Source of the DNA: an uncultured Rhodospirillales bacterium
Lineage (GTDB): Bacteria > Pseudomonadota > Alphaproteobacteria > JAWKYA01
Reading direction: 5' to 3'
DNA: 64,000 bases
Assembly (NCBI GenBank): GCA_964397465.1
Contig: CAYNIC010000011.1
Location: 3,503-67,502, forward strand
This document shows positions 33,688 to 53,803 of the stretch, one piece after another (position 1 is the first letter of the stretch; each line of letters starts with the position of its first letter). The notes under the pieces are model-generated. The model did not search any database. It had not been told where the DNA came from and worked only from the letters and a program-made list of their open reading frames with translations. Position numbers and translations under genes: made by a program.

Positions 33688-33724
33688 GAAATTCCTTTCT
33701 AAGAGATCAAGAATAATCCCTACC

Positions 33725-35108: not shown

Positions 35109-35434
35109 AGGGATGATCCGTTTGCAGAAGGTAAGGTTGGCGCCGGTGCGTGGGTGTCGCTTTGCCAGTTTTTTCCTTCGGTGATGATGCAAGATCGGCT
35201 GGAGGTGAGGCGCGCCACGGCAACCCAACTTGCCGTCATCGGCGCGATGTAAACATCGATGGTCGTGCCCTCCGCCGTGGTGCCGCGGCCTAGACGGATA
35301 AATCCCTTGGCGGGGGCGAGGGCTTGATCAAGCTCCGCCGTCGATCCGCACCGCGGTGCTGCAAGAGTAAGCGACGGCAAGGCAAGGATCATCGCGCCAA
35401 GCGTCAGCCCGGCGATACTGTGACAGTAGCGCAT
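35105..35434 (-). CDS. hypothetical secreted phage protein
   Basis: Signal peptide MRYCHSIAGLTLGAMILALPSLTLA. Placed between terL and the lysis genes. Confidence 0.35.
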   Translation of the reverse strand: MRYCHSIAGLTLGAMILALPSLTLAAPRCGSTAELDQALAPAKGFIRLGRGTTAEGTTIDVYIAPMTASWVAVARLTSSRSCIITEGKNWQSDTHAPAPTLPSANGSSL

Positions 35435-35466
35435 AAAAATTCTCCTCAAGATGGGGTTAGAAAAAC

Positions 35467-36960: not shown

Positions 36961-37319
36961 GACAGATCATCATCCTCGGCATCATCGTCCGGCACGGTAT
37001 CGTCGGTATCCGCCACCGCATCCCGCGCCCGGGTCAACAGCGACGCCAAGGCATCGTCGCTTTCCGCTTCTTGATGATCCACCGCCCACCGCGCCAGACG
37101 TAACAGCCCATCCAAATGTCCTAGGGCGGATTTGCACGCAGTATGATAGGCGGAAAAACCCTTGGCGGTGTTGTCGCAGGGTGCGGCGACAAACTGGGTA
37201 TAGCTGTCCAAGGCGGTGGCCAATAAAACGGGAAGATCCTGGGCGATTTTTTGCCGGGTGGACTCGAGGCCCTTTTGGGTGCGGTTTTTGCTGGAAAGTT
37301 TTGATACCGAAACTGTCAC
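36957..37319 (-). CDS. hypothetical phage protein with acidic C-terminus (in the position of the terminase small subunit)
   Basis: 120 aa. ATGA overlap with terL. No recognisable motif. Confidence 0.35.
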   Translation of the reverse strand: MTVSVSKLSSKNRTQKGLESTRQKIAQDLPVLLATALDSYTQFVAAPCDNTAKGFSAYHTACKSALGHLDGLLRLARWAVDHQEAESDDALASLLTRARDAVADTDDTVPDDDAEDDDLS

Positions 37320-37354
37320 GTCATGTCCTTTCGAGGGAAAACAAAGGCAAGAAA

Positions 37355-37585
37355 TTATCGGGGCGGCAGTGTGCCGGTGATTCCAGTGGCGATTTTTAGA
37401 AACTGTTCCAGCCGCGCCTCGACCTCAGCCAATCGGGTTTCCAGGGGCAGGGAAGATGCCGGTGAAGAAGGTGATGAATCCGGCGGCGCAATGAAAACCG
37501 CCGAGGCGGTTTCGTCGTTTTTCAGGATATAGTTCTCGTCCTCCCATCGAACGCTAAGACCGCGGTTACTGTAGATATAGGGCAT
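37355..37585 (-). CDS. hypothetical phage protein
   Basis: 76-aa ORF between the tail fiber and the terminase module. Confidence 0.3.
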   Translation of the reverse strand: MPYIYSNRGLSVRWEDENYILKNDETASAVFIAPPDSSPSSPASSLPLETRLAEVEARLEQFLKIATGITGTLPPR

Positions 37586-37594
37586 GGAACCTCC

Positions 37595-40087: not shown

Positions 40088-40111
40088 GAGAGTGTCTCCT
40101 TATAGAGGCGC

Positions 40112-40603
40112 TTAACGGATCAGGGATATTTGCTGAATGGCGTAGTGGGTTCCGGTGTCCAGCAGGCTGCGGCCGATGGCGTTCGCCGGCGACAAGCGAC
40201 GCTCGCGGTCCAAAATCTTGGCGCGCTGCTGCGTTTGGGCGATTGCGGCGCCGTTGTCGGCGAGGTCAGCATCCCGTTTGGCCAAGGCTTGTTCCGTCGC
40301 GTCGGCATGACGCGATTGCATCGCCTGTTGCAAGGCCGCCGTACTGCCGCCGTCATCATTGATGCCGCGCGCCGCCGCACTGGTGCGGGCGCCGCCCAAC
40401 TCGCGGCGTAACCCAAGGCGCCGGGTCGCTTGATCGGTCTCGAAGTTGTCGGCGATCAGCGAGCGTCGCCGCTGCAAGGACGCCAGTTGCTGCTGGGCAG
40501 CGAGGCTTTGCGCTTTCGCTTCGGCCCGGCGGGCGGGAAGATTCAGCGCCGTTTGGGCTGCTGTGGCGGCAAGCTGTGGAAGTAACGGGGTTGACGCGGC
40601 CAT
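40112..40603 (-). CDS. hypothetical virion protein (T7 gp13/gp14 position)
   Basis: 163-aa Ala/Gln-rich protein between the tubular protein B gene and the tail fiber gene. One-nt overlap coupling. Confidence 0.4.
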   Translation of the reverse strand: MAASTPLLPQLAATAAQTALNLPARRAEAKAQSLAAQQQLASLQRRRSLIADNFETDQATRRLGLRRELGGARTSAAARGINDDGGSTAALQQAMQSRHADATEQALAKRDADLADNGAAIAQTQQRAKILDRERRLSPANAIGRSLLDTGTHYAIQQISLIR

Positions 40604-42534
40604 CAGTCATTCACCTTAAGTTCGCAGTTGACGGAAAGAAGCGTGAAGGAAAAAGGATTGCTTTGGGTAATGCGCCACAGCGGTTCCAGCGCGCCGCGAT
40701 GCCAGCCCAAGGCCCGCACCGTGACATCGCCGGTATAGGCCGCCGGCGGTGAGTCAAGATTGACGCCGCCGATCGTCTGCAACGGAACCAATCTTGGTCC
40801 GCGGCCCACATCAACCATCAAGGCGGGGGTGTCTTTGATGCGGAAGGTGGCGCGGATCAGCCGCAAGGGCTCACCCTGAAGTTCTCCGTTGTCCGACGGC
40901 GGCAGGGGCTCGATGCTGTGGGTAAAGGCAAGACCTACTTCGATGCGGGTGGCGGTGGCGGCCAGAGAAATCACCCCGCCTTTGACCTTATAAAGGCCGA
41001 GCGGCCGGCCATCGGCGATGACCGTCACCCATTTGTCGTTGAGATGGGACAGCCCGCCCCAAATCGATTGGGCTTGTTCGGTTTCGCCCAACAAGGCGGC
41101 ATCACTGTTAAGTTGCGGATCAAATTTTTCGATCCGAAAATCGGCAAAACGTTTGGCCAAGGCATAGACGTCGCCGCCCACCACGGCGACGGCATGAAAC
41201 TCGCCGTCGGTTTCCAACCGCGTCCAGGCGGTGACATTCTCCGAGCGATAAAGGGTAAGGGCGCCGAGGCCGCCGTCGCTCATCACCACGTAAAGCACCC
41301 GCGACTTATCGGCGTAATCCATGTCGATCGGATCCGTCACCAGATGCGGAGCCAGCACCGAGAGGTCGCGGGCTTGGTAAGCCGCCTCGGCATCGGTATA
41401 AAGAAGTTCGCGAATTTGCCGGCCGCTGCGCGCGGCAAACAGGGTTGCGCCTTCAACCGCGCGGGGTGGTACGGTGCGATCAGGGTGTGAGCCGACGGTG
41501 GTTTGCCGTTTCGCCTGGACCGTGGCGGGAGATAACGGCTCGCCGGTGATCTGCCACTCGCCGCCGGTGGTCAAAACAAACAGCGTCAGACCGGAATGCA
41601 TCCCGCGAATGGCGTCGACCTGTTCCGACAACAATCCGAACTCGATCGCATCGTCATCCTCGCCGATGCCAAGATCAAAGTTGAACAGATCCGAAGTCCG
41701 CGACATCCAGATCCGGTTGGGGATCGACCGGGCGCCGCCGAACACCAACCGGTCTTGGGCGAAGGCGACGCTGGCGGGCCAGCCGCGATAGGGTGAAAAC
41801 GCCTGCTCGGACCAATCGGTGATGGCGGTGGTGTTGGGCAAGGACAGGGCCAGCGTCACCTTCACCGCCGTTGCCGAGGTGACCTCGATGATGGCGACAT
41901 CCTGGTTGGGCAGGCGTAAGTATGCGCCCAGCTGCGCCGGATCAAACACCGGTGCCGATGCGGTCAAGGTAATGGTGCCAGAGGTGCCGCTGGGCGTTAA
42001 GGTCACGGTATCTCCGGCGAAACGATAGAACGGATGATAGCGGCGTTTGGTTGTCGTATTGGCGACAAAGGTTAGATCCGCCAAAACCCAGGTTTGCGGC
42101 CCTAGACGGGTGAGGGTCTTTGGCGCAACATCGGGATGACAAATAAACAACGTGTCCGCACTTTGCGCCCAAGTCAGACGCTTGATCTGATCCGCCGTCC
42201 ACGGCGTGGCCACGGTGGCGATGACCGCATCATGGTGCAGGATGGTGATCTGCTGATGGGTGACGACCAACAGATAAGTCTGCTCGGCATTAAAGGCGAA
42301 ACCGATCAGACGGCCGGAGCCCGCGGCGATGGCGATATGACGCAGGCCAGGCCGGCGCGTCACGCCTCCGGTCGGCTGCACCAAAATATTGCGCAGTTTT
42401 TTTGCGGCGTTGCTGTACGACGCAAGATCGCCCCGGCCGTAAAGATCGCTCGATACTTCGCCGGCGGTGAAATTATTTTTGAGAACCCGCATGCGTCCCA
42501 TCTCAGCCTCCTCCAGTCCAGCCGGTAAGATCAA
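40603..42534 (-). CDS. tail tubular protein B (T7 gp12-like)
   Basis: N-terminus MRVLKNNFTAGEVSS...VQPTGGVTRRPGL parallels gp12 (NLKGGISQQP...GLQKRPP). Size 643 aa. Synteny after the tubular protein A gene. Confidence 0.65.
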   Translation of the reverse strand: MILPAGLEEAEMGRMRVLKNNFTAGEVSSDLYGRGDLASYSNAAKKLRNILVQPTGGVTRRPGLRHIAIAAGSGRLIGFAFNAEQTYLLVVTHQQITILHHDAVIATVATPWTADQIKRLTWAQSADTLFICHPDVAPKTLTRLGPQTWVLADLTFVANTTTKRRYHPFYRFAGDTVTLTPSGTSGTITLTASAPVFDPAQLGAYLRLPNQDVAIIEVTSATAVKVTLALSLPNTTAITDWSEQAFSPYRGWPASVAFAQDRLVFGGARSIPNRIWMSRTSDLFNFDLGIGEDDDAIEFGLLSEQVDAIRGMHSGLTLFVLTTGGEWQITGEPLSPATVQAKRQTTVGSHPDRTVPPRAVEGATLFAARSGRQIRELLYTDAEAAYQARDLSVLAPHLVTDPIDMDYADKSRVLYVVMSDGGLGALTLYRSENVTAWTRLETDGEFHAVAVVGGDVYALAKRFADFRIEKFDPQLNSDAALLGETEQAQSIWGGLSHLNDKWVTVIADGRPLGLYKVKGGVISLAATATRIEVGLAFTHSIEPLPPSDNGELQGEPLRLIRATFRIKDTPALMVDVGRGPRLVPLQTIGGVNLDSPPAAYTGDVTVRALGWHRGALEPLWRITQSNPFSFTLLSVNCELKVND

Positions 42535-43114
42535 ATCCGCCGGCGGTTTCTTCCTGGGCGTCGATCAGACGGGCGCGGCGAAATTCTTCCTCGGCGGCAC
42601 GGGCCAAGGCTTCGGCCCGGGATGAATTCTCGGTCAAAGGAATGCAGAACTCGGCCGCCAGGCGCGCGATCAGCACATGATCAAAGAACGGCGGAAAATC
42701 CGCTTCGCCGGGGCGAAAAATATAGGTCAGGATCACTTCATCGGCGTGGGCGTGAAGCCGCCGCTCGGCGATGCGGTAGGTAAGCCCGCGCCCGCGACGG
42801 CCGTTACCGGCGGAAAGGGCGCGAAGATAATCGCCGGGCAATTGAAACGCATAGGCATAGTCGGCGGGGGGCGAGGCCGCCAAGGGCGCAAGCCGCCGTT
42901 GCGCCGTGGCGAAATTCCACGGATGGGCGGAGAGCAGGGCGTCCCGCGTCGACGGATAAAGCAGGCTGGCCACCTCGGCGGCAGCGGAGCCTTCGTCAAA
43001 TCCTAAAATAGGCGCGGCGCCGATTTTCACCAGCGCTCGGGCACAAAGTTGAATGGCGCTCAGAGCCATGGCTCGTTGCCTTTCCCATAAAAAAGCTCCG
43101 CGGCGATGAACCAT
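42503..43114 (-). CDS. tail tubular protein A (T7 gp11-like)
   Basis: 203 aa. MALSAIQLCARALVKIGAAPILGFDEGSAAAEVASLLY...HPWNFA parallels the gp11 N-terminal pattern. Confidence 0.6.
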   Translation of the reverse strand: MVHRRGAFLWERQRAMALSAIQLCARALVKIGAAPILGFDEGSAAAEVASLLYPSTRDALLSAHPWNFATAQRRLAPLAASPPADYAYAFQLPGDYLRALSAGNGRRGRGLTYRIAERRLHAHADEVILTYIFRPGEADFPPFFDHVLIARLAAEFCIPLTENSSRAEALARAAEEEFRRARLIDAQEETAGGFDLTGWTGGG

Positions 43115-43152
43115 CGCCGGCGGAGCCGATCACAACAGAGAAAATAGATTTA

Positions 43153-43410
43153 TTAGTCGGTGTTCACGCTGCCGACGGCGGTCATGTCGGCGACATCGAC
43201 CGTGCCGTTCTGGCTGGAAGCGATCAGAAGAATGCCGGCGCCGCCGTTGACATTGGCGAGAATCATATCGCCTTTGCGCAGCATATCTACGGCGGGATTA
43301 AAATAGCCGTTGGTATCGACGATGTCGGCGGTATCGGTCGAGGCATAATGCCAAAGGGTAAAGCCGTTGGCATAGGCCAGCACCGAAAGGTTTCTGGCAA
43401 GATAGGCCAT
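43153..43410 (-). CDS. hypothetical phage protein
   Basis: 85-aa ORF between the capsid and tubular A genes. Confidence 0.35.
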   Translation of the reverse strand: MAYLARNLSVLAYANGFTLWHYASTDTADIVDTNGYFNPAVDMLRKGDMILANVNGGAGILLIASSQNGTVDVADMTAVGSVNTD

Positions 43411-43448
43411 GAAGATCTCCTTTATCTCTTTAAGCTAAGGGTGAAATT

Positions 43449-44273
43449 TTACGCTTCGCTGCACGGCAGGGTGACAAGACCGGTGCCATCGACCAGCACC
43501 GCGCCCAAGGACAGCGAGCAGCTGACGAACCACGCGGCCCGATCGTTGTGATAGGCGATGTCGGTGTTGACTTCCGATCCCACCGCGAGGGCAAGGGCGG
43601 TCTTGTGCCACCAATGGCACAGGCGGTGACCATTGCCGTCGAGGCCAAGGCCGGAATGGGGCATCCACAAGGTTCCCAGCCAGCGCTTGGCCTGGGTGCC
43701 GCGCCAGGGCAGATCGTCGCTGCCGACATAATCGGCATTGGCGAATTCCTGGATCATCAAGAGATCGGACCATTGTTTCCATCCCACCACGGCGTAACGA
43801 TCTCCGTCATCGGGCACATCGTTGCCGCCCAGGATGCCGAAGGCCTCCAGCACCTTTTGTTTGGTGAGACCGCCGCTAACCGTCGGAGTCAGATTGGCCG
43901 AGGTGTTCATCTGCGCCAAAATCAGCTCGTCGGTTTTGCGGCCCAAGGCATAGGCGCCGGCATTGGCCACCACCGCCCGCTCTTCGTTCTCGGTCTTAAG
44001 TTCGTCCAGGGCGTCCACCCATTCGCCGGCATAGTAATCCGACAGAAAACATTCGATCGGCGCGTGATCGATGTTCATCACCGGCACCTTGCCGTGTCGC
44101 GCTTTGGTCGAAGCGCTGCCCTTGCCGACTTTTTGAAACACGGTGGAGGCGCCTTTAACGCTGCCCTTGGCGCGAACGCAAGGGCGGAGCTTGGCGCCCG
44201 TACGCTGATAGGCTTCGTGAACTTCCTTTTCGAACTGCTTGATGAAAGCAGCATCAATGGAGGGTTTATTCAT
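43449..44273 (-). CDS. major capsid protein (T7-like podovirus type)
   Basis: 274 aa. Position between scaffold and tail tubular genes. Weak pattern similarity to gp10. Confidence 0.6.
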   Translation of the reverse strand: MNKPSIDAAFIKQFEKEVHEAYQRTGAKLRPCVRAKGSVKGASTVFQKVGKGSASTKARHGKVPVMNIDHAPIECFLSDYYAGEWVDALDELKTENEERAVVANAGAYALGRKTDELILAQMNTSANLTPTVSGGLTKQKVLEAFGILGGNDVPDDGDRYAVVGWKQWSDLLMIQEFANADYVGSDDLPWRGTQAKRWLGTLWMPHSGLGLDGNGHRLCHWWHKTALALAVGSEVNTDIAYHNDRAAWFVSCSLSLGAVLVDGTGLVTLPCSEA

Positions 44274-44394
44274 GGTGATCCTTTCAGAAAAAATAAACGG
44301 TTGAGTCCGGCCACGGGTTATCCGCGCAGGGGCGGGCTTGCAGCCGGATGAAGGAAAAAGACGGGCCGCCGCAACGGTTGTCCGTAATTAAGAC

Positions 44395-45132
44395 TTATGA
44401 ACTGGGGTAAAGACGGCGGAAGCCCTCGCTGACCTCGGCCACAAAGGCGGGGTCTTTGTGCTTCCAATAGCGGGGATCGCGCATCATCTTGGTCAGATCC
44501 TCTTCGGTTAAACTTGCAACCGCGGTGCCGCCACCGCCAAGCCGCGGCGGCGATCCGCTTTGCATCATGGCGTGAAGCGCCAGAACGCCGTCGCTGGTCG
44601 AGGCCAAGGCGTCGAACACGTCGCGCGGCAGGTGGGCCGTGCCCCAGGCGTTGAGTTGCCGGGCGATTTCGCGCCATGCCGTATCGCCGCCGAAATGGGC
44701 GATCAGTCGCTCGCGCTGTTTTTGCGCCTCGAATTCCGACGCCAGATCGGTGATCGCCGGCAGCATGCGTTCGCCGGCGAGATCGTAAACCAGCTGAGCT
44801 TGGCGCGGCGTGAAGTGGGCCGCGTGCAGGCGACCGTTGACATCCGGATCAATGTCCAGAAAATCGGTGCTAAGATTGATCTCGTAAGCATCGGGTGTGT
44901 CGGGGATACCGAGCGCCCGGCGGAAGGCTGCGGTCTCCGTCTCGTCGGCATCATCTCGCGGCACCCGCACCATGGTCGATAGTTTTCGCTCCAGCTCCAA
45001 ATAGGATCGCGCCAGTTTCGCCACATCGGGCGCGCCGGTTTGCGGGTCCAAAAATTTCTGGGGAATTTGCACCGTGTCGGATGAAGGGGCGGCGGGCGTA
45101 TCCGATGGTGTGGTCAGTAAACTCTCGGTCAT
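44395..45132 (-). CDS. capsid scaffolding protein (probable)
   Basis: Acidic, helical protein starting MTESLLTT. Position between portal and capsid. The long N-terminal extension of the ORF is Arg/Pro-rich and not credible. Confidence 0.45.
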   Translation of the reverse strand: MTESLLTTPSDTPAAPSSDTVQIPQKFLDPQTGAPDVAKLARSYLELERKLSTMVRVPRDDADETETAAFRRALGIPDTPDAYEINLSTDFLDIDPDVNGRLHAAHFTPRQAQLVYDLAGERMLPAITDLASEFEAQKQRERLIAHFGGDTAWREIARQLNAWGTAHLPRDVFDALASTSDGVLALHAMMQSGSPPRLGGGGTAVASLTEEDLTKMMRDPRYWKHKDPAFVAEVSEGFRRLYPSS

Positions 45133-45136
45133 GGCA

Positions 45137-46669
45137 TTATCCTTTTGTCGACGAAAGGGTTTGCGCCTCAACAGAGGCAGGTAAAATTTCAGAAGAAATC
45201 GCTGCTGGAACATCGGGACGTAACAGGCTCGCCGGCAGGTCCAGCATCTTGGCGGCCCATCTGGCGGCGGCCGGCGCATCCAAGGTCGCGGCGGCGTCCG
45301 GCCCCAACTGCTTGGCGATGTCCAGCCACGACAAGGCGCCTTGCGCCTCCAACTGGGCTTGCCGCCGCGCCAAGGGCGATCGGTATTGCAAGGTGATGGT
45401 GCGACCATCCAAGGTCAGGTTCGGCAATTCGCCGCGCCGGGATAAAATCGCCAAGGCCCGCGCCACCAACGGCGTCAAAAGTTCGGCCTGCAGCCGGCCG
45501 TAGGTTGCGCCCAATAACCGCGCGGTCTCCGCCGCCCGGTGCAGAACTTCGGTTGCGGTCATGCCCGGCGTCGCCACACTTGCCAGGCGGTCGGTCAGCA
45601 GACTGGAGCGGATCGCTTGCCGTAGGGTGGCAAGAGTCAAATCCGAGACATTGAAATTTCCCGGCACCTGCAAGGGCGTCAGGCCCGATGAGCCGACCGC
45701 CTTGGGAATGATGGTGCCCGGCACCAACCTCACCGTCGCCGGATTTAAAACACCGTCGTCATCGGCCTGCCAAATGCCGGTGACGGCGATGGCGGCGTTT
45801 TTCAGCGTCAACTCAACCACCTTGTTGGCGGTTTTGATATCGGGCAATGCCTTCATCACCGGCGAGCGGCCATAGGCCTCGCCCGGCGCTTTCATCCAGC
45901 GAAACGACAAAAAGGGCGATTGATCCAATCGCGCCTTGGCCAAAAGATGCGGGCCGTTGAATTTCTCCGCACCGCCTTCCAACACCGCGACGTAATCGTA
46001 ACCGTTGCCGGTCTCGCGGGGGACCACCGCTTCGATCACCGTGTAAAGACGATCGCTGTCGGTTGCGGCGGAAGCGGGAATCTCCGCTGCGGGAAAGCGG
46101 CTGTGCAGTTGCAGCCGGCTCAACCGATTGCGACGATAGGCGATATCCAACCTTCCCTCGGCGCCTTCCTCCAACACCACATCCCACAACGGCACGGCGG
46201 CAAAGCGAAAGGCGCTGGGTTGTCCCGGGGCGGTTTCTTCAAAGGACAAACAAGCCGTGCCCGACACCACCAAATCCAGAAAGCATTGATGAATCTCCAC
46301 CGCAAAATTCGAGCGATCGAAATGCTGCTGCAGAATCTCGGCGGCGCGATCGAGTTTCGGCGCCAGGTCGCCGTGCAGGTGTTCGGGAATTTCCCGGCCG
46401 GGGGCAAAGCCGAACCATCTGGCCCAGGGCGGCGTCAGTTCAGCCAGCAAACTGGCCGCCAATTGATCCACCGCATCGGGGGCGGTGCCGTCGAACAACC
46501 GCTCGCGGCTGGCGGCGGATAGACTGGAGGGCCCCGCTCCGGCAAAGGGCGTCTCATCCCGCGACGGCAAACTGTAGGCATAGCAGTCGCGCCACACCGA
46601 CTCCCAGGCGCTGCGCTGCATCTTGGCGCGGTGAAACCGGGCCATCACGCTTTCCGGCGTCATGATCAC
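45137..46669 (-). CDS. portal (head-to-tail connector) protein, T7 gp8-like
   Basis: 510 aa. N-terminal VMARFHRAKMQRSAWESVWRDCYAYSLPSR parallels the gp8 N-terminus. Position 5' of scaffold. Confidence 0.75.
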   Translation of the reverse strand: MIMTPESVMARFHRAKMQRSAWESVWRDCYAYSLPSRDETPFAGAGPSSLSAASRERLFDGTAPDAVDQLAASLLAELTPPWARWFGFAPGREIPEHLHGDLAPKLDRAAEILQQHFDRSNFAVEIHQCFLDLVVSGTACLSFEETAPGQPSAFRFAAVPLWDVVLEEGAEGRLDIAYRRNRLSRLQLHSRFPAAEIPASAATDSDRLYTVIEAVVPRETGNGYDYVAVLEGGAEKFNGPHLLAKARLDQSPFLSFRWMKAPGEAYGRSPVMKALPDIKTANKVVELTLKNAAIAVTGIWQADDDGVLNPATVRLVPGTIIPKAVGSSGLTPLQVPGNFNVSDLTLATLRQAIRSSLLTDRLASVATPGMTATEVLHRAAETARLLGATYGRLQAELLTPLVARALAILSRRGELPNLTLDGRTITLQYRSPLARRQAQLEAQGALSWLDIAKQLGPDAAATLDAPAAARWAAKMLDLPASLLRPDVPAAISSEILPASVEAQTLSSTKG

Positions 46670-46983
46670 TCTCCCAATAAAATTTTGCGGGCGGGGATAA
46701 GGCGCGCCGATTTGCCGGCGGTAATGGCAGGCTGCTCCAGCACGCCGGTCAGTCCGGTTTTGACGGTGGTGGCAAGGCCGCGGCGAATCCGGCGGTGCGG
46801 GTGAAGATCTTCCTTCACCGCGGCGGATAGGGGCGGCGGTGCCGGAACCGGCGGTGGGGTGGGGGCGATAAAGCGGCTGGCCATCAAGGATCTCCCTGAA
46901 GCAGGTGGAACGAACGGGACAAAGGGTGGAAAAAACAAAACCCGCCGCGGTTTCCCGGGGCGGGTGAGAAGAGGCGGAGTCAT
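46666..46983 (-). CDS. hypothetical phage protein (first gene of structural operon)
   Basis: Pro-rich small ORF. ATGA overlap with the portal gene. Start may be the internal MASRF. Confidence 0.3.
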   Translation of the reverse strand: MTPPLLTRPGKPRRVLFFPPFVPFVPPASGRSLMASRFIAPTPPPVPAPPPLSAAVKEDLHPHRRIRRGLATTVKTGLTGVLEQPAITAGKSARLIPARKILLGE

Positions 46984-46998
46984 GGCCTCATGTGTTCC

Positions 46999-47027
46999 TA
47001 TATAGTTCTCTTTTCAGTTCCTGTCAA
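46999..47027 (-). promoter_or_regulatory. consensus sigma70-type promoter reading into the structural operon
   Basis: On the minus strand: TTGACA, a 17-nt spacer, then TATATA. Confidence 0.5.
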
Positions 47028-47109
47028 CGGTATTTTTTCTTAAAAAATGAAAAAGAAGCTGGCCGCCTGTGGGCAAGGTTTCCTTCCGGCTGAATCCCCA
47101 GCGTCTATT

Positions 47110-47562
47110 TCAAGAACGGCTTACCCGACCCGCGGGATTTAAAAGACGTCCCGCGTTCCTGTCCGTCAGGGATAAAAATAACCGCCATGGGGTCCAAATA
47201 AATCGGCGCCGCAGGTGCAAAATATTTTTTACCACGGCAACGCAGGTCATCGGCCGCAGCAGGTTAAGACAAGATCGATGGCGCCGCGGGGTGCGGGTCA
47301 TCGGCATCATCACGGGAATCGGCACCGCACCCTTTGCGGTATAGAATCGAATCATCTCCGCAACGGAGTAGGGAGGAAGGAGTTTGATCATCAGACGGCC
47401 GCACAGGGGATCCACCATGATCCATCCGCTGGCGATTCGATAAAGGATAAAGCAATGGCGGAAGCCTCGTTTCAACAGATAAAACCATGGAAATTCCAGC
47501 TCGCCGCGAAATACCACGATCGCCGTAACCCCGCGGCGCGGACGATCAGAGTCGGCGGTCAT
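47110..47562 (-). CDS. hypothetical protein (early/regulatory region of element)
   Basis: 150 aa starting MTADSDRP. ATGA overlap with the upstream gene. The longer 244-aa ORF has an Arg-rich, non-credible extension. Confidence 0.4.
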   Translation of the reverse strand: MTADSDRPRRGVTAIVVFRGELEFPWFYLLKRGFRHCFILYRIASGWIMVDPLCGRLMIKLLPPYSVAEMIRFYTAKGAVPIPVMMPMTRTPRRHRSCLNLLRPMTCVAVVKNILHLRRRFIWTPWRLFLSLTDRNAGRLLNPAGRVSRS

Positions 47563-47924
47563 CGGACGATTCCCTTGGCCCGCAGCGGCGGCGTCAAACG
47601 CTCTAACGCTTCGCGCCACAGCTTGGCGAAGTTCGCCTCTTCGCCCCGGGCATAGGGCGACGGAGCGCGGCCCATGCGGCCGTAGTGCATCAGGATTTTG
47701 ACATGAGCCCGGCGCAGGCGCCGTCGCTCGACCAGCCGCACCAGCTCGCGCACCACGTCGTCGGGCTCGCAGGGTTTGGGGGTGGATTTTCCCGCCTCGA
47801 ACCGGGCGCCGTCGGCGCGGGCGGTCAGGCAGGCGACGCACCAAAACCAGCAGGCTAAACTCGTCGGGAAAGGCTCCCCAATCGTTGTTCCCTTGCCGGT
47901 GGTGATAAGCTTCAACTGGCCCAT
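47559..47924 (-). CDS. hypothetical protein, possible Cro/CII-like regulator
   Basis: 121 aa, divergently transcribed from the repressor gene. Cys cluster CWFWCVAC. Confidence 0.4.
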   Translation of the reverse strand: MGQLKLITTGKGTTIGEPFPTSLACWFWCVACLTARADGARFEAGKSTPKPCEPDDVVRELVRLVERRRLRRAHVKILMHYGRMGRAPSPYARGEEANFAKLWREALERLTPPLRAKGIVR

Positions 47925-47969
47925 GGCTTTGCTCCCTTGAAGGGCTTTTTTCTCTCGCGGTAAACGAGT

Positions 47970-47984
47970 GTTCTATTATTGTTC
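47970..47984 (+). promoter_or_regulatory. alphaproteobacterial LexA-type SOS box (GTTC-N7-GTTC)
   Basis: GTTCtattattGTTC lies in the divergent intergenic region between the regulator gene and the repressor gene. A TTCAC-N7-GTGAA palindrome sits at 48058-48074. Confidence 0.5.
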
Positions 47985-48084
47985 GCTATTAGAGGGAGAG
48001 TCTATATGCACAAATACCCATGTCAAGCCTGAATCAGAATTTGATCCTAGTGACATTTTTCACCTGAATTGTGAAGGTGTTCCC

Positions 48085-48717
48085 ATGTTGAGACATGCGG
48101 ATATATGGCGGGGGATTGACCGTTTGGCTGCGACACATAATTTGTCGCCCTCGGGCTTGGCTCGAAAGTCAGGATTGGATCCCACCACCTTTAACAAATC
48201 AAAACGGGTTGCCCGGGATGGCAAGCCGCGTTGGCCGACGACGGAAAGCCTGGCGAAGATTCTGTCGGCCACCGGCGCCGGCATGAACGAATTCGTCTCA
48301 TTGATGAGCGAGACTCCCGGCACCTCGGTAACCCAGCGGATCCCGGTCATCGGCTATACCCAAGCGGGTCAGGCCGGTTACTTCGACGACGCCGGTTATC
48401 CCGCGGGCAAGGGCTGGGACGAGGTGGAGTTCCCCGATGTCGGCGATCCTCACGTTTATGCGCTGGAGATCAACGGCGACAGCATGATGCCGGTTTATCG
48501 CGACGGCGACGTGGTTGTGGTCTCGCCCCAGGCGCAGATCCGCCGCAACGACCGGGTGGTGCTGAAGACCGTCGAGGGCGAGGTGATGGCCAAGGTGCTC
48601 AGCCGCCGGTCGGCCAAGAAGATCGATCTGCATTCGCTCAACACCGATTTCCCCGATCGCAGCCTGGACAGCGACGACGTGCTGTGGATCGCGCGGATTA
48701 TCTGGGCCAGCCAATAG
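48085..48717 (+). CDS. phage repressor, HTH plus S24 (LexA-like) peptidase domain
   Basis: N-terminal HTH region (SPSGLARKSGLDPTTFNK). C-terminal S24 domain with GDSM and a following Lys (ALEINGDSMMPVYRDGDVVVV...K). Confidence 0.8.
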   Translation: MLRHADIWRGIDRLAATHNLSPSGLARKSGLDPTTFNKSKRVARDGKPRWPTTESLAKILSATGAGMNEFVSLMSETPGTSVTQRIPVIGYTQAGQAGYFDDAGYPAGKGWDEVEFPDVGDPHVYALEINGDSMMPVYRDGDVVVVSPQAQIRRNDRVVLKTVEGEVMAKVLSRRSAKKIDLHSLNTDFPDRSLDSDDVLWIARIIWASQ

Positions 48718-48952: not shown

Positions 48953-49813
48953 ATGGCGAAGAGTCTAAGTAACGAGGATAATTGTCAGACCTTCGTCGAT
49001 GGCCGGTGGATCGCGGGCAATCCGCCGCTGATGCATGCTATGACCCATGCGGTGTGGTTGGGATCGGTGGTGTTCGACGGCGCGCGGGCCTTCGACGGCG
49101 TGGCGCCCGATCTTGATCTTCATTGCCATCGGGTCGTCAATTCGGCATCGGTGTTGGGCTTGGCGCCGACCCTGACCGCGACGGCGATCGAAGATCTGGC
49201 GCGGGACGGCATCAAAAGATTTGCGCCGAACACCCCGCTCTATATCCGGCCGATGTTCTTTGCCGAGGACGGGATGCTGGCGCCCGATCCCGCCACCACC
49301 AAATTCGCCCTGGTGATGTGGGAGGATCCCTTGCCGGCGCCGACCGGATTTTCCGCAATTGTCACACCGATGCGGCGCCCGCCGCCCGAAGCGGCGCCTT
49401 CGGAAGCCAAAGCGTCTTGTCATTATCCCAATCTGGGTCGCGCGGTGCGCTGGGCAAAGGAACGCGGCTTTGACAACGGCGTGGTATTGGATCCCGCCGG
49501 CAAGATCGCCGAATTCGCTTCATCGAATATTTTCTTCGTGCAGGACGGGGTGGTGGTGACGCCGGCGGCCAACGGCACTTTCCTGAATGGCGTCACGCGG
49601 CGCCGCGTGTTATCGCTGTTGCGCGCTGATGGCGTGAAGGTTGAGGAACGGGTAGTTGACCCGTCAGAGCTTGATCGCGCGTCCGAAGTTTTCTCCACCG
49701 GCAACTATGCCAAGGTCATGCCGGTGACGCGGATGAACGATCGCAGCCTGCAGCCGGGACCGCTGTTCCGCCGCGCCCGCGAGCTCTATTGGGGTTATGC
49801 ACATGGGAAGTAA
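48953..49813 (+). CDS. class IV aminotransferase (branched-chain amino acid / D-amino acid aminotransferase family)
   Basis: Fold-type IV PLP enzyme pattern (FxxDG...Y...R..F, conserved E...K region). 286 aa. Confidence 0.75.
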   Translation: MAKSLSNEDNCQTFVDGRWIAGNPPLMHAMTHAVWLGSVVFDGARAFDGVAPDLDLHCHRVVNSASVLGLAPTLTATAIEDLARDGIKRFAPNTPLYIRPMFFAEDGMLAPDPATTKFALVMWEDPLPAPTGFSAIVTPMRRPPPEAAPSEAKASCHYPNLGRAVRWAKERGFDNGVVLDPAGKIAEFASSNIFFVQDGVVVTPAANGTFLNGVTRRRVLSLLRADGVKVEERVVDPSELDRASEVFSTGNYAKVMPVTRMNDRSLQPGPLFRRARELYWGYAHGK

Positions 49814-49829
49814 CGTATGAGAGGGAGTT

Positions 49830-50627
49830 ATGCCTTACGTACAGCGAGATAAAAAAGGAATTGTAACAGGGTTATTTGAACATAAATTACCAGAGGCTAC
49901 TATGGAATTTCTGGAAAAAGACGATCCGGAAATTAAAGACTTTTATGATCGATTTCCACTATCGCCTCAGATGATAGAGGCGCTTCGCCCTAAATCTACA
50001 AAAGAGTTACTCGAACAGCATCAAAAAATTGAAAAAGAATATAATCAACTTATAGAAGACCATAAAGCACTTCAAAATCTCATTATATCTTTATTAGGTG
50101 TATGGGCGGAAATGGAGACTAGCTTTGCTGGCTTACTAAATGTTCTTTTAACAGGAAGTAGAGAAAAATTGGCGTTTGCACTTTACTTTTCTATTCGAAA
50201 TTTTCAAACGCAAATGACGGTAATTCAAACACTTGGTGAAGTGCTTTTTCCTTCCGAAGAAAATTCAAAAAAAGTGTATAAAGAATGGGAGTCAGTTTTT
50301 AATAAAATTAAAAAGGAAGTACCTGAAATTCGAAACAGAATCGCTCACGGGCATATAGTCCAGTTCTTGCACGAGAAGAAACATATACGTGTTTTGCCGC
50401 CATTTTTTGATTTCATTAAAATAGAAAAAAGCAACGCAAAAGCTGAATTACCTGGAGTTGGACAAAACGAAATATACAAAAGTATAAAGGTAATAGGCCT
50501 AACTTCTCAGTTTGCCAATCGCTTGTCGCTTATTTTTAAGCGTTCTTTTGAAGGCGAGGCATTAGCACTTAAAGAAATTGATTTGGAGCTCAAAAGTTAT
50601 AAGGAAAATTTCAAAAATTTAAGATAA
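49830..50627 (+). CDS. hypothetical protein with HEPN-like Rx4H motif (Abi-like)
   Basis: AT-rich (about 35% GC). All-helical protein. EIRNRIAHGH matches the HEPN R-x4-6-H motif. Confidence 0.5.
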   Translation: MPYVQRDKKGIVTGLFEHKLPEATMEFLEKDDPEIKDFYDRFPLSPQMIEALRPKSTKELLEQHQKIEKEYNQLIEDHKALQNLIISLLGVWAEMETSFAGLLNVLLTGSREKLAFALYFSIRNFQTQMTVIQTLGEVLFPSEENSKKVYKEWESVFNKIKKEVPEIRNRIAHGHIVQFLHEKKHIRVLPPFFDFIKIEKSNAKAELPGVGQNEIYKSIKVIGLTSQFANRLSLIFKRSFEGEALALKEIDLELKSYKENFKNLR

Positions 50628-50765
50628 CAGATGATATAAACATCAGCACCGCCATACGTCGTGTCAATGTCCTGAGATCGACTATCCGCCGGTGCCCTTC
50701 AGCAATAAACCCTTTGCCAGCCTCAGCCCGCTTAAGTAGCATTGCGCGGAAGGGATTTTCGTCTC

Positions 50766-51779
50766 ATGACGCTAAATTATCTCGAACTGATTATCGGCAG
50801 TCTGTGCTTAATCATCATCGGCTTCTGCGCCGGTGTTGTTATCCATGCCGGCGAGATCATTCCCTATCAGCCGCTGATCGTCGGTTTGATCGCGCTGGGC
50901 GGCGCGGTGATCGCCTATGTCGGAACGCTGAGGGCATCCCACGCCCATCTGCAGGTCGCCGAGAAGAACATCAAGCATCAGCAAGAGCAGAAGGCGCTGG
51001 ACTCTATCAACGAGAAACAGGAAATCGCGTCCTTTGCGCAAAAGCTGCTGCTGGAAATATTCAATTATCTGGTGGCGACAAGCCTTCTTTCCCGGGACCA
51101 GGCCATCGATGAAAAATGGCTCAACCTCTTGACCCTGAAAGACATGATAGAGCGATATGTCACCAGGATGGAGGACGCCTCGGATAAATTCATGAAACTG
51201 GACATTAACAACTCCAGCCGAATTCATCTGATCATTCGCGGCTTGAAAAACATCCTGCCCGAGGCGGAGACGATCCAAAATATAAATCAGCTGATGAAAA
51301 CCGGCGACAATGGCGCGATCTGCGCCCAGTATATCAACCGCACCTATGAATATATCGGGACATTCTTGAACGAGAACGTTACGGTACATGACATCCTTAA
51401 CGACTTGGATGTCATCTCCAAGGGCAATGTGGATCAATCAAGGGCGTATTCGATCTTGACGACGGATCTGAGAAAAATCATCAACGAGAATCTGAGGCTT
51501 ATTCAATCCGCCGTCACCGCGGGCCGCTATCTCGAGATCGATTATCCGCCGGGGCGCCGGGTGGTGGCGCCGCATATTTTGGGGCGCACCAGCAGTGGCG
51601 AGCTGGTGCTCAGCGTCTATCAAGTCAACGGCGCCAGTGATGCTGGCGAGACGGTGGGGTGGAAGACTTTCCATCTCGATCGCATTTTGGGCGTAAGGGT
51701 GTTGGATAAACGCTTTTCACCGCAGGGCGATTACAATCCCCACGATCCGAAAATACCCGAAGTTATCGTCAAGGTATAA
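50766..51779 (+). CDS. membrane-anchored protein with C-terminal WYL domain
   Basis: Two N-terminal TM helices. The C-terminus RRVVAPHILGRTSSGELVLSVYQVNG...WKTFHLDRILGVRVLDKRF matches the WYL consensus (..P..L....wYL.......R.FrLdRI..v.vL...F). Confidence 0.5.
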   Translation: MTLNYLELIIGSLCLIIIGFCAGVVIHAGEIIPYQPLIVGLIALGGAVIAYVGTLRASHAHLQVAEKNIKHQQEQKALDSINEKQEIASFAQKLLLEIFNYLVATSLLSRDQAIDEKWLNLLTLKDMIERYVTRMEDASDKFMKLDINNSSRIHLIIRGLKNILPEAETIQNINQLMKTGDNGAICAQYINRTYEYIGTFLNENVTVHDILNDLDVISKGNVDQSRAYSILTTDLRKIINENLRLIQSAVTAGRYLEIDYPPGRRVVAPHILGRTSSGELVLSVYQVNGASDAGETVGWKTFHLDRILGVRVLDKRFSPQGDYNPHDPKIPEVIVKV

Positions 51780-51806
51780 GCGCCGCAGCGCGCCTGTTGC
51801 AGGTGC

Positions 51807-51885
51807 GGATCACTGATCAACAGTTTTCATCGCAGCTAAAGGACCATCTACGCGATGTGATTGTCACTCCCATCAGCTCTGCAAA
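51807..51885 (+). repeat. about 80-bp direct repeat, copy 1 (about 75% identical to 53179-53257)
   Basis: gcggatcactgatcaacagtttt...gtcactcccatcagc versus gcggataactggtcaacagttttt...gtcgctcccatcactgc. Confidence 0.45.
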
Positions 51886-51903
51886 TAGGTCTATACGGTT
51901 CAA

Positions 51904-52623
51904 TTAATTTGTCGTTTGAAAGCCACGAATCGCCCAGAGTATTGACCATCCAAATATAAAGATAATCGTTGGGGGAATGATAAACATACCCAGGATAAAT
52001 AATAAACTTTTGTCAGCTATAGATCGATATTCTTTGGCATGGTTTTTTGCGGCATCAATTTTGTCTAACCGGCTTACTTTAGATTTGTAGATTTCTGCAG
52101 GGTTACGGCCGCAAGGAAGATCTATGATCTGTCTTGATTTTTCTGCCAGATTCTTATTCAGAATATTTCTAGCATCTTGAATAGATAATGACCTAAAATC
52201 AACAATAGTAACCCAAGCTTCTCGTTTAAAAGCTTCCACTATAGCTTCCAGCTGTTCATCAGATAATTTTTCAAAGTCAAACTTAGTTTGGGATGACGGA
52301 TTTTGTTTCTCCGTTTGTCGTTCTGGTGGGGGAAAATTTGATTCTTGTATTTGATTAAGATCTATCCAGCCGTTCTCCATAAAATAGAAGATAGGCTCAG
52401 TGCGGCATTTAGTTCTATAATACTTTCCTACTTCCGGTTCAGGCAGAGAGTCTGTCTCTGATTGTAGAAAAGATATTTCGCGATCTGCTTCTGCAGAACG
52501 CCTTATATTATTAGTATATTCCGATTTCAATTCGGTTAATACCAGCCAAGCTACCAGCGAAACCCATATTGCACTAATTATCAGCCATAAACGAAAAAGC
52601 CCTCTTCCAAATCTAGACATCAT
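51904..52623 (-). CDS. hypothetical membrane protein (N- and C-terminal TM helices)
   Basis: 239 aa, AT-rich. Last gene of a three-gene minus-strand cassette. Confidence 0.45.
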   Translation of the reverse strand: MMSRFGRGLFRLWLIISAIWVSLVAWLVLTELKSEYTNNIRRSAEADREISFLQSETDSLPEPEVGKYYRTKCRTEPIFYFMENGWIDLNQIQESNFPPPERQTEKQNPSSQTKFDFEKLSDEQLEAIVEAFKREAWVTIVDFRSLSIQDARNILNKNLAEKSRQIIDLPCGRNPAEIYKSKVSRLDKIDAAKNHAKEYRSIADKSLLFILGMFIIPPTIIFIFGWSILWAIRGFQTTN

Positions 52624-52813
52624 ACTTTAGGCACTCTTCTGCAGAAGCAACTTCAGATTTTAATTTTGAATAATCTATATTTTCACCCCAAGGTTTATCG
52701 TCTCGAGCGTTCTTTAAGGCGTCGCTGCAAAGATCTTTATTGCTCAAATTCGTAAATGGATATGAATAGAATTTTGGTGGGTAGTCTGGAATAGTAACTT
52801 TCACACATTTCAT
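52613..52813 (-). CDS. hypothetical small protein
   Basis: 66 aa. Overlaps neighbouring genes, which suggests translational coupling. Confidence 0.3.
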   Translation of the reverse strand: MKCVKVTIPDYPPKFYSYPFTNLSNKDLCSDALKNARDDKPWGENIDYSKLKSEVASAEECLKYDV

Positions 52814-53046
52814 TGTTTGATCTTTCCATTATTTTTTATAATTTGGTTGGGATCGAATCCCTCCGCCACAAGAAGTGAGCTAAGTTGTTCACCAAAACTT
52901 TTACTGTCTTCATATGCGAAGAGAGGCTTTTGAGTCTTATCAGATACAGATATATAAACGCGCCCTTGACCCGCATGCTCAAAATCAAAGTTGTAGCCAA
53001 GGTCATGGAGCGCAATGAGCATTCTGGCGTTGTTTGTATTGCTCAT
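52810..53046 (-). CDS. hypothetical small protein
   Basis: 78 aa, first gene of the AT-rich cassette. Confidence 0.3.
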   Translation of the reverse strand: MSNTNNARMLIALHDLGYNFDFEHAGQGRVYISVSDKTQKPLFAYEDSKSFGEQLSSLLVAEGFDPNQIIKNNGKIKQ

Positions 53047-53178
53047 TAGGTTATGCTTCCCTTTTATTTCTATTTAAAAGGGTATCATTAAATATATATA
53101 ATTTTAAATAGTTTTAAAAACACCTGACTTTTCAGTATCTTCTGCCTAGAAATCATTTTTAGCGCATTGTGTGGTTGC

Positions 53179-53257
53179 GGATAACTGGTCAACAGTTTTT
53201 ACCGAAATTGAAAGCCATCCGCGCGAAGTGACGGTCGCTCCCATCACTGCGCGGATT
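53179..53257 (+). repeat. about 80-bp direct repeat, copy 2
   Basis: See copy 1 (51807-51885). Lies upstream of the minus-strand cassette. Confidence 0.45.
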
Positions 53258-53284: not shown

Positions 53285-53494
53285 CTAACACGTCGCGTAG
53301 GTCGGGCTTTGCGCCGCCTCAAACACAAACATCACTTCCGACGGAATAATGTCATGGGGCAACTGGCCCTTTTCCTGTGCTGCTTTCAACACAAGATCCT
53401 TCACATCGCGTCGCATCGTGCTGTTGAGGGTTTGAAAACCGCCGACCCCATAAGGGCCAACTGTTTTTCCGTGGTATTTGATAAATACGTTCAT
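53285..53494 (-). CDS. hypothetical small protein
   Basis: 69 aa beginning MNVFIKYHGKTVGPYG. The upstream part of the ORF is AT-rich and unlikely to be coding. Confidence 0.3.
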   Translation of the reverse strand: MNVFIKYHGKTVGPYGVGGFQTLNSTMRRDVKDLVLKAAQEKGQLPHDIIPSEVMFVFEAAQSPTYATC

Positions 53495-53803
53495 CGTAAC
53501 TCCCTCCCGCAGTAAACGGTTGTCCCCGTTTCCCGGTATTTTTTTAAGTGCAGTTACTTTTTTTCTAGGCCATATCGCGCGTTTAAGGGCGCCTCGGCCG
53601 TATGATATCCGATCTAGAATACGCAGCATTATAGGCACTGCATGATCGGGTCCACAAGCAAAGATCGTAAGCTCATGATTACGTTGAGCAATAAAAATAG
53701 TCGGGCGACGTTTTATTAACCAATTATTTTTTCTGAAGAAAAATAGCGTGGCCATACGCTAATTTTAGCGACGTAAATACCTCGGAAATACTTGGTTTTT
53801 ACG

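Follow-up and report, generated by a model that had tools for sequence, protein, structure and literature searches.

The locus described here lies in a 64-kb window, the whole stretch of DNA analysed, from an uncultured Rhodospirillales bacterium, and raises the question of whether two adjacent genes, one encoding a HEPN-like protein (gene 1) and the other a membrane-anchored protein with a WYL-like domain (gene 2), constitute a functional module. In the preliminary description, both genes were placed in one AT-rich segment of 2 kb and about 35% GC, bordered directly downstream by high-GC core genes, and were interpreted as a sensor-effector defence module. The analyses reported below point to a different explanation, namely that two unrelated genes, a HEPN-type gene 1 and a native TM-WYL gene 2, have probably been juxtaposed by a recent insertion and do not form a module. 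Base composition does not bear out a 2-kb AT-rich segment: the interval 49814-51800 has an overall GC content of 45%, and its AT-rich part is confined to positions 49820-50691 (872 bp, 35.6% GC). Gene 1 (49830..50627, + strand, 265 aa) has 34.2% GC and a GC3 of 27%, whereas gene 2 (50766..51779, + strand, 337 aa) demonstrates near-host values of 51.9 and 69%, respectively; those of the neighbouring aminotransferase gene are 61.8 and 73%. Downstream, a second AT-rich block (approximately 51876-53161, 36.7% GC) precedes the high-GC core genes.

Comparison with relatives revealed that the AT-rich stretch carrying gene 1 is a strain-specific insertion of 872 bp (49820..50691, hereafter insertion a). 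It begins 6 nt past the aminotransferase stop codon and, according to the junction alignment, separates this codon from the upstream region proper to gene 2. In the relatives L001 and L002, BLASTN and junction alignments showed the stop codon with GTTATG running directly into TGCCCTTC, with no intervening DNA. The order aminotransferase, gene 2, a 69-aa gene and glyoxalase, without gene 1, was found in five of five related lineages, where gene 2 shares 96, 87, 73 and 44% identity with the copy studied here and is pseudogenised in the remaining case. A metagenome scan contributed one gene 2 pseudogene locus, while scans of GTDB genomes yielded no match to the gene 2 alignment and, for the aminotransferase, only homologues of at most 60% identity, none in synteny. 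Insertion a leaves no space for a second gene beside gene 1, whose own ribosome-binding site (GAGGGAG, 49821-49827) lies inside it. Neither target-site duplications nor terminal inverted repeats were seen in the junction alignment, and the insertion lacks the hallmarks of a mobile element (recombinase, target-site duplication, terminal repeats, tRNA target). No tRNA gene and no match to any Rfam family were found within the 64-kb window. A promoter-like site (TTGCCA-17-TAGCAT, 50714..50742, + strand; 9/12 consensus matches) falls in the ancestral conserved region upstream of gene 2, and the same stretch occurs in L001, which has no gene 1; the site constitutes weak evidence, since the number of promoter-like sites in the region does not exceed the shuffled expectation. 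Gene 1 may be regarded as a horizontally acquired, promoterless single-gene cassette, transcribed probably by read-through from the aminotransferase gene.

Such a cassette could nevertheless have entered into a partnership with its new neighbour, the membrane WYL protein sensing infection and activating or licensing the HEPN RNase, comparable to the modulation of Cas13d by WYL1. The two genes are adjacent and co-oriented, with 138 nt and no visible terminator-like site between them, and one case in which a WYL accessory protein acts on a HEPN RNase is already known (PMC5935466). Moreover, the right end of insertion a resembles the first codons of the WYL domain of gene 2 over 22 nt (20/22 identical), which hints at some shared history. 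Against such a pair, the HEPN-like and TM-WYL gene families do not co-occur in any other lineage examined of either: gene 1 is absent from five of five other gene 2 lineages, while neither WYL nor TM-WYL neighbours were encountered in any of the six informative contexts of gene 1 relatives, which stand as solo genes. Such a lack of co-occurrence had been named in the preliminary description itself as an outcome that would refute the pair. The distance in GC3 (27% vs 69%) likewise indicates different compositional origins, and gene 2 is kept by purifying selection where gene 1 is absent, its intact copies in those lineages having dN/dS ratios of 0.08-0.11 overall and at most 0.24 per domain. 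The sensor-effector pair is thus largely refuted by the co-occurrence test and must be considered highly improbable, and gene 2 is native to its lineage and under purifying selection.

The protein encoded by gene 1 is a soluble helical protein, without any hydrophobic segment in the Kyte-Doolittle profile, whose start codon is backed by an N-terminus, MP[YF]V[QK]R, shared across its family. The sequence EIRNRIAHGH, in which the preliminary description had recognised the Rx4H motif of HEPN RNases, withstood comparison with homologues: the putative catalytic residues R168, N169 and H173 (codons R168-N169-R-I-A-H173 at 50331..50348, + strand) are conserved in at least 90% of 150 aligned sequences, together with E96, R128, W153, R187 and G209, in an alignment with a mean column identity of just 15%. 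The AlphaFold2 model of gene 1 reached a pLDDT of 93.9 with this 150-sequence alignment, compared with 43 from the single sequence. In the model, a small alpha/beta domain (about residues 1-55) is followed by helix 57-108, which contains the near-invariant E96, while helix 144-172 terminates in the motif, with H173 as the first non-helical residue and a beta-hairpin (residues 175-189) starting one position beyond H173. A conserved acidic residue in the N-terminal helix is characteristic of HEPN domains (PMC3710099). In sequence and model, gene 1 thus possesses both the conserved motif and an acidic residue in an N-terminal helix.

Profile searches placed gene 1 in an undescribed family. A full HMMER search of 1.84 billion representatives recovered 201 clusters (50% identity) of remote relatives at E ≤ 1e-3; a word-indexed search of 5.8 billion proteins returned gene 1 alone, a sensitivity artefact in view of the HMMER result. 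Gene 1 itself has DUF6548 as its best Pfam match (E = 0.0026) and matches no HEPN family. Among 150 family members scanned against 24,736 Pfam models, sub-threshold matches were obtained to HEPN_RiboL-PSP (24 members), HEPN_MAE_28990 (7), HEPN_Cthe2314 (6), Csx1_HEPN (3), DUF4145 (2), HEPN_Swt1 (2) and Abi_C (1), and members also matched PADLOC models, namely RTasHEPN (12) as well as Csx1 and CARF_HEPN. The strongest of the HEPN matches, to HEPN_RiboL-PSP (E = 2.3e-4), scored 21.5 bits against a cut-off of 28.4, and in no member scanned did a HEPN match attain its family's curated threshold; gene 1 is therefore assigned to a new HEPN-like family and not to a named one.

These figures leave some room for a rather unlikely alternative, according to which gene 1 is no HEPN nuclease at all, and encodes a helical, coiled-coil protein derived from a phage or mobile element, with R-N-x3-H-G serving binding or structure. 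It draws on the curated thresholds that were not reached, on the fact that DUF6548, a family of unknown function for which no relevant literature was found, is the commonest weak Pfam match (26 of the 150 members), and on the extent of the HEPN similarity, which in the matches inspected aligns on the motif helix and is limited to some 35-50 residues around the motif. Fold searches with the model likewise retrieved generic helical bundles only, with no match to solved HEPN domains, and PDB sequence searches with the family returned noise. It is opposed by the way in which the weak matches, drawn from 24,736 Pfam models, fall on some seven HEPN families independent of one another and also on numerous HEPN models of PADLOC, by the near-invariance of R, N and H among 150 sequences of such low overall identity, and by the position of the motif, which in the predicted structure is that of HEPN domains. 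Hence the earlier HEPN assignment holds as far as the motif, the sub-threshold family matches and the helix-end position are concerned, but not at the level of curated thresholds, and on sequence and model gene 1 is best described as HEPN-like at the superfamily level.

The relatives of gene 1 occupy varied positions. One stands alone in a P22-like phage, another, named "Abi-like protein" in UniRef, is located between plsC-like and miaB genes in Microvirga terricola, a third sits in a riboflavin operon, flanked by ribE-like and ribBA genes, and PemK and an IS element lie close to a fourth. At four of the five loci compared, both flanks exceed the gene in GC content. The alpha/beta N-terminal domain (~55 aa) is present in about half of the family members. 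Searches of phage and plasmid collections with gene 1 (tblastn) gave no match, and neither gene 1 nor P0007 had a match when viral contigs were scanned with them; the alignment of the family diverges too strongly for pattern scans. If HEPN proteins at large are a guide, the gene 1 product most likely forms a dimer in which two R-N-x3-H motifs would make up a metal-independent RNase site, and it would work alone as an effector of the Abi or toxin type, with the N-terminal alpha/beta domain and the long coiled helix as candidate sensing or autoinhibitory parts.

Gene 2 starts at ATG 50766, as do all its homologues (P0002-P0006); TTG 50742, proposed by the ORF finder, is an artefact. Its product can be divided into a 2-TM hairpin, a middle domain of ~180 aa with helical character, and a WYL-like domain. 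The two N-terminal TM helices of the preliminary description were recovered as two hydrophobic segments (about residues 6-28 and 34-55; 50781..50930, + strand) in a Kyte-Doolittle profile with a window of 19, whose means exceed 1.6 at centres 10-25 and 40-48 and rise to 2.86; this predicted TM region is strongly conserved in the homologue alignment. The claim of a WYL C-terminus (residues 241-337; 51486..51779, + strand; profile match at 241-312) stood in part. It agrees with the PADLOC WYL models PDLC01652 (E = 4.3e-7) and PDLC01457 (E = 0.0033) and with the WYL-containing tail of the PADLOC AbiEii model (E = 3.9e-5), but the Pfam match to PF13280, although covering model positions 1-70 of 70, remained below the cut-off (E = 0.015; 15.7 vs 21.8 bits). 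PF13280 is also matched by three of the four WYL-bearing homologues (best E = 6e-4) and is the only family to recur. The WYL-like region contains the basic residues R, R, K, H and R (...PGRRVVAPH...WKTFHLDRI...). No HTH or other DNA-binding domain was matched in gene 2, PDB sequence searches with its family gave no match above noise, and a literature search on TM-WYL proteins found nothing relevant. The homologue P0006 lacks the WYL domain, which suggested a recent addition; this possibility was rejected, and the domain is taken to be ancestral, because a decayed WYL remnant persists downstream in L004. At the superfamily level, judging from profile and hydrophobicity data, gene 2 encodes a protein with two TM segments and, at its C-terminus, a WYL-like domain. 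It would represent a lineage-specific inner-membrane protein. The WYL-like domain, on the cytoplasmic side, would most likely bind a ligand of nucleic-acid origin, and the helical domain may couple this event to the 2-TM hairpin, uniting sensor and membrane output in one protein.

Among the conserved neighbours of gene 2 are a CI/LexA-type S24 repressor, a 943-aa helicase of the Helicase_C_2 family and a cluster of phage-like structural genes in which a GTA-type holin also occurs. These neighbours, the fixed chromosomal position and the host-like codon composition of the gene, and the sensing of ssDNA by CapW-type WYL-domain repressors, as reported in PMC11662680, make it possible, albeit unlikely, that gene 2 has no defence role and acts as a membrane regulator linked to DNA damage or prophages. 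Its WYL domain would then sense ssDNA as in CapW, and its TM part would act on division, on the envelope or on release of particles from the adjacent phage-like cluster. In two sister lineages, however, gene 2 survives as a truncated copy or a pseudogene with all of its neighbours retained, a pattern that fits an accessory or conflict gene, and its best WYL profile matches are to models from defence contexts.

The second AT-rich block (insertion b, 51876..53161, - strand, 36.7% GC) is absent from every relative compared and is composed of a tight operon of three ORFs on the - strand, at 52810-53046 (78 aa), 52613-52813 (66 aa) and 51904-52623 (239 aa). None has a match in Pfam, PADLOC, NCBIfam or PHROGs; the 239-aa protein, for which no homologue was found, carries a hydrophobic segment at both ends. 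Insertion b is flanked by an imperfect direct repeat of ~86 nt (left copy 51790..51875, right copy 53162..53246), detected as repeat families D1 and D8 and in the junction alignments, which represents a duplication of the intergenic/terminator stretch that separates gene 2 from the 69-aa gene, the right copy including a conserved terminator-like hairpin, ATCCGCGC...GCGCGGAT. A reading of this repeat as an integron cassette with attC sites was dropped because the repeat is a duplicated terminator region, single-copy in relatives, and no integrase was seen. The similar GC contents of the two insertions (35.6 and 36.7%), their restriction to this strain and their location on either side of gene 2 might suggest one foreign system of single origin, either interrupted by gene 2 or integrated on both sides of it. 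We find this very unlikely: the junctions are separate and of unlike kind (no duplication vs the ~86-nt repeat), gene 1 and the insertion b genes lie on opposite strands, and the solo relatives of gene 1 have no similar small-gene neighbours. Two AT-rich insertions around gene 2 in one strain could reflect a hotspot with functional clustering. As a long shot, gene 2 might found a class of membrane-anchored WYL sensor-effectors made of one protein, in which ligand binding by the WYL domain sets off a membrane output, and mark a small defence hotspot with two captured cassettes, where a solo HEPN RNase has already come or is now coming under its control in a nascent partnership, the 22-nt identity being a recombination footprint.

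Under the preferred explanation of unrelated genes brought together by insertion, the proposed defence system does not hold, and the locus therefore does not belong in lists of candidate HEPN-WYL modules. Of interest instead is a HEPN-like family that lacks annotation and numbers at least 201 clusters, found in phages and as solo, co-oriented insertions in housekeeping operons (riboflavin, upstream of miaB and after the aminotransferase). As a candidate single-gene Abi system or toxin it is amenable to study, and it may help to show how cassettes with no promoter of their own are spread when no recombinase is in sight. Should gene 2 prove to be a sensor-effector, WYL biology would reach past transcription factors and nuclease accessories.

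Among known systems, gene 2 shares with the wHTH-WYL-WCX factors CapW, BrxR, PafBC and DriD the C-terminal WYL match and presumed ligand sensing (PMC4012209), but it has a 2-TM hairpin and an uncharacterised helical domain in place of the HTH. WYL fusions listed in 2014 involve wHTH, Cas3, exoRNase, Mrr, HNH, SF1 helicase, AbiGII-like nucleotidyltransferase, BRCT and TerB (PMC4012209), and the 2-TM-WYL arrangement is not in that list; the same paper notes a membrane-associated CARF. By analogy, gene 2 would resemble Cam1 (CARF-TM), Csx23, Cap15 and PycTM in joining a ligand-binding domain on the cytoplasmic side with a small TM module. The logic of those proteins is that of a sensor domain joined to a TM part in a single-protein effector. 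They differ from gene 2 in that its sensor is WYL, and not a CARF, SAVED or cNMP-binding domain, and in that gene 2 has no signal-generating cyclase or CRISPR neighbour, membrane disruption here being putative. With Cas13d-WYL1 the locus has in common a HEPN-type gene adjoining a WYL-domain gene, but a CRISPR context is lacking, the two genes adjoin in this strain alone as the result of an insertion, and the WYL protein is membrane-anchored and older at the locus than the HEPN gene. Like the HepT toxin of HEPN-MNT (HepT-MntA) type II/VII TA systems, gene 1 encodes a small, putative HEPN-type RNase toxin on mobile DNA. Its product is roughly double the size of HepT-type proteins, and neither gene 1 nor its relatives have an adjacent MNT nucleotidyltransferase, to which no ORF in either neighbourhood gave a match, or any conserved partner. 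Finally, with respect to stand-alone HEPN Abi proteins and toxins (HEPN_RiboL-PSP PF18735, HEPN_MAE_28990 PF18737, Abi_C PF14355 and DUF4145 PF13643), gene 1 differs in the family-specific beta-hairpin straight after the motif, the 52-residue helix, the N-terminal alpha/beta domain and the absence of a threshold-level family match, but it resembles them in R-N-x3-H at the end of a long helix, in the acidic residue (E96) of the N-terminal helix, in its all-helical character and, as a family, in the occurrence of single genes in phages and at variable or inserted positions.

The interval 49814-51800 follows a gene for a class IV aminotransferase (48953-49813; Pfam Aminotran_4, E=1e-45) and contains two plus-strand open reading frames, gene 1 (49830-50627, 265 aa) and gene 2 (50766-51779, 337 aa), which the preliminary description had read as a possible two-gene HEPN and membrane-anchored (TM) WYL defence module on a 2-kb segment of about 35% GC. 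Gene 1 begins 17 nt past the aminotransferase stop codon, and its start is backed by the ribosome-binding site GAGGGAG and by an N-terminus, MP[YF]V[QK]R, common to the whole family. For gene 2, the TTG at 50742 proposed by the ORF finder was rejected, since all homologues begin at the ATG at 50766 (MTLNYLEL...). The GC content of the whole interval is in fact 45%, with 34.2% in gene 1 (GC3 27%), 51.9% in gene 2 (GC3 69%) and 61.8% in the aminotransferase gene (GC3 73%). The high GC3 of gene 2 indicates that its lower overall GC stems from amino-acid composition and not from foreign origin. A second AT-rich block (~51876-53161, 36.7% GC) lies just beyond the end of the interval.

Contigs of related bacteria were retrieved through gene 2 homologues by exact-sequence look-ups. 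The homologue P0003 (96% identical to gene 2) is encoded on a 25.8-kb contig that shares with the window the phage-like genes, S24 repressor, aminotransferase, gene 2, a 69-aa gene, glyoxalase and helicase, and the same gene order was found around P0004, P0005 and P0006 (87, 73 and 44% identity, respectively). A fifth gene 2 lineage, L105, came from a metagenome scan. Gene 1 and the downstream AT-rich block are absent from all five lineages, and BLASTN together with junction alignment bounded two insertions in the window. The first, insertion a (49820-50691, 872 bp), carries gene 1 and lies between ...stop-(C/G)(G/T)TATG and TGCCCTTCAGC...; neither target-site duplication nor terminal repeats were seen at its junctions, the ends of the 872-bp cassette are not recognisable, and the 64 nt that follow gene 1 within it look, by eye, far less AT-rich than the gene. 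Its right end (50674-50695, across the junction) matches 51534-51555, the first codons of the gene 2 WYL domain (...EIDYPP...), at 20 of 22 nt, a score reached by none of 100 shuffles; the match could be the footprint of a recombination event or have arisen by chance. Besides the source genome contig (JGI 3300013121, 623 kb), only two short contigs, both 100% identical to the window, carry an identical copy of gene 1.

Insertion b, the strain-specific block downstream of gene 2, holds a compact minus-strand operon in which three ORFs of 78, 66 and 239 aa overlap, the last with a hydrophobic segment at both ends. Searches of Pfam, PADLOC, NCBIfam and PHROGs gave no match for any of the three, and no homologue of the 239-aa protein turned up among 5.8 billion proteins. 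The insertion is surrounded by an imperfect direct duplication of ~86 nt (51790-51875 and 53162-53246; copies only about 78% identical), corresponding to the intergenic terminator region that separates gene 2 from the 69-aa gene. The latter (53285-53494, minus strand; MNVFIKYHGKTVGPYG...), convergent with gene 2 and present in all relatives, encodes a protein without a family match; the 156-aa ORF called mechanically at 53285-53755 (minus strand) is an over-extension of it.

Genes 1 and 2 were found together neither in the five other gene 2 lineages nor in six loci of the gene 1 family, an outcome that the preliminary description itself had named as refuting a module. That they adjoin here is an accident of insertion in this strain. 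The data support the domain-level interpretation but not the module, and the original observation is partly confirmed. In the intact WYL-bearing lineages, all without gene 1, dN/dS of gene 2 was 0.08-0.11 for the whole gene and did not exceed 0.24 in any of its TM, helical and WYL parts. Gene 2 is therefore functional, with no need of gene 1. In L004 (3388-4363), the most distant lineage, the gene 2 protein is cut to 273 aa, and what is left of the WYL C-terminus, decayed and out of frame, lies downstream (FYRDHIIHIALLNKKFSL*PSYNPRDPE...), indicating that the WYL domain is ancestral. In L105 (191-1008), gene 2 is broken into two ORFs of 109 and 137 aa. Some lineages can thus dispense with gene 2. 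Every neighbouring gene is intact in both L004 and L105.

The gene 1 family recurs as solo, often co-oriented cassettes inserted in host operons or housekeeping arrays, and the window follows the same pattern. The closest relative (P0007, 35% identity) is encoded in a P22-like phage genome, with an HNH gene on one side and a NusG-like gene on the other. P0020, named 'Abi-like protein' by UniRef, is a single gene (7001-7825 of locus L102) between a plsC-like acyltransferase gene and the miaB-phoH-ybeY-corC-lnt array of Microvirga terricola. P0166, found on 24 contigs, separates a Lum_binding (ribE-like) gene from ribBA in a riboflavin operon (loci L106-L109; 7001-7792 in L106). Three further relatives have an IS element and a gene for a PemK toxin nearby (P0159), lie close to a TacA-like antitoxin gene (P0012) or stand amid small unknown genes (P0010). 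No WYL, TM-WYL or recurrent partner gene was found near these six loci, and at four of five loci the family gene is lower in GC than both flanks. Judging from family knowledge, gene 1 would most likely act on its own, as an RNase toxin of HEPN type or as an effector of abortive infection.

The two N-terminal TM segments proposed for gene 2 were borne out by two strongly hydrophobic segments (centres 10-25 and 40-48; Kyte-Doolittle 19-residue means, maximum 2.86), the second followed by a basic stretch, which under the positive-inside rule suggests a cytoplasmic C-terminal part. The C-terminus, assigned as WYL-like, matched PADLOC WYL models (E=4.3e-7 and E=0.0033). Pfam PF13280 aligned with it end to end at 15.7 bits, under the cut-off of 21.8, and recurred in three of four WYL-bearing homologues (best E=6e-4). 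The C-terminus also matched the tail of a PADLOC AbiEii model (E=3.9e-5), in agreement with the AbiGII-like nucleotidyltransferase-WYL fusion among those of PMC4012209. PDB sequence searches gave no match, and the helical middle domain matched nothing. By analogy with its family, gene 2 would most likely be a membrane-anchored WYL ligand sensor with a membrane output.

A DNA-damage or prophage-linked role is a serious alternative, favoured by the conserved neighbours of gene 2, among them an S24 repressor of CI/LexA type, a helicase of the Helicase_C_2 family and a phage-like structural cluster that includes a GTA-type holin, and by the ssDNA sensing reported for CapW-type WYL repressors (PMC11662680). 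The phage-like cluster (~32386-47924, minus strand) encodes portal, T7-type scaffold and capsid, a nozzle-like protein, a fibre with CBM_5_12 and a GTA_holin_3TM holin, is divergent from the CI-like HTH-S24 repressor gene (47968-48717, plus strand), and is syntenic in all relatives seen. In the part covered, neither an integrase nor replication genes were recognised; a defective prophage and a GTA-like element are both possible readings of the cluster. At its edge, a 454-aa RelA_SpoT (alarmone synthetase) protein (32386-33750, minus strand) adjoins the holin.

The Rx4H motif attributed to gene 1 is present as EIRNRIAHGH (R168, H173). A word-indexed search returned only gene 1 itself; exhaustive HMMER search of 1.84 billion cluster representatives recovered 201 relatives at E<=1e-3 (59 at E<=1e-10), mostly of 200-280 aa and about half without the first ~65 residues. 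In a 150-sequence alignment (mean column identity 15%), E96, R128, W153, R168, N169, H173, R187 and G209 are at least 90% conserved. The family reached no curated HEPN profile threshold, but its weak matches are heavily concentrated on HEPN families: sub-threshold Pfam matches comprised HEPN_RiboL-PSP (24 of 150 members), HEPN_MAE_28990 (7), HEPN_Cthe2314 (6), Csx1_HEPN (3), DUF4145 (2), HEPN_Swt1 (2) and Abi_C (1), together with DUF6548 of unknown function (26), and PADLOC matches included RTasHEPN (12), PD-T4-2_B (11) and numerous Csx1, Csm6 and CARF_HEPN models. The weak HEPN alignments inspected span 35-50 residues around the motif helix. The AlphaFold2 model built on this alignment (pLDDT 93.9, pTM 0.79) comprises three short strands and two helices (residues 1-52), a 52-residue helix (57-108), helices 113-121, 125-139 and 144-172, a beta-hairpin (175-189) and helices 195-203, 212-240 and 246-264, with the R-N-x3-H motif ending helix 144-172. 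From these HEPN-centred matches, the conserved motif and its place at the helix end, we place gene 1 in a HEPN-like family not described before, with putative RNase activity; this family and the unusual TM-WYL architecture of gene 2 are what is new here, and the novelty is modest. The motif closing helix 144-172 agrees with HEPN domains as described by Anantharaman et al., who also report a beta-hairpin directly after the motif in Csx1.
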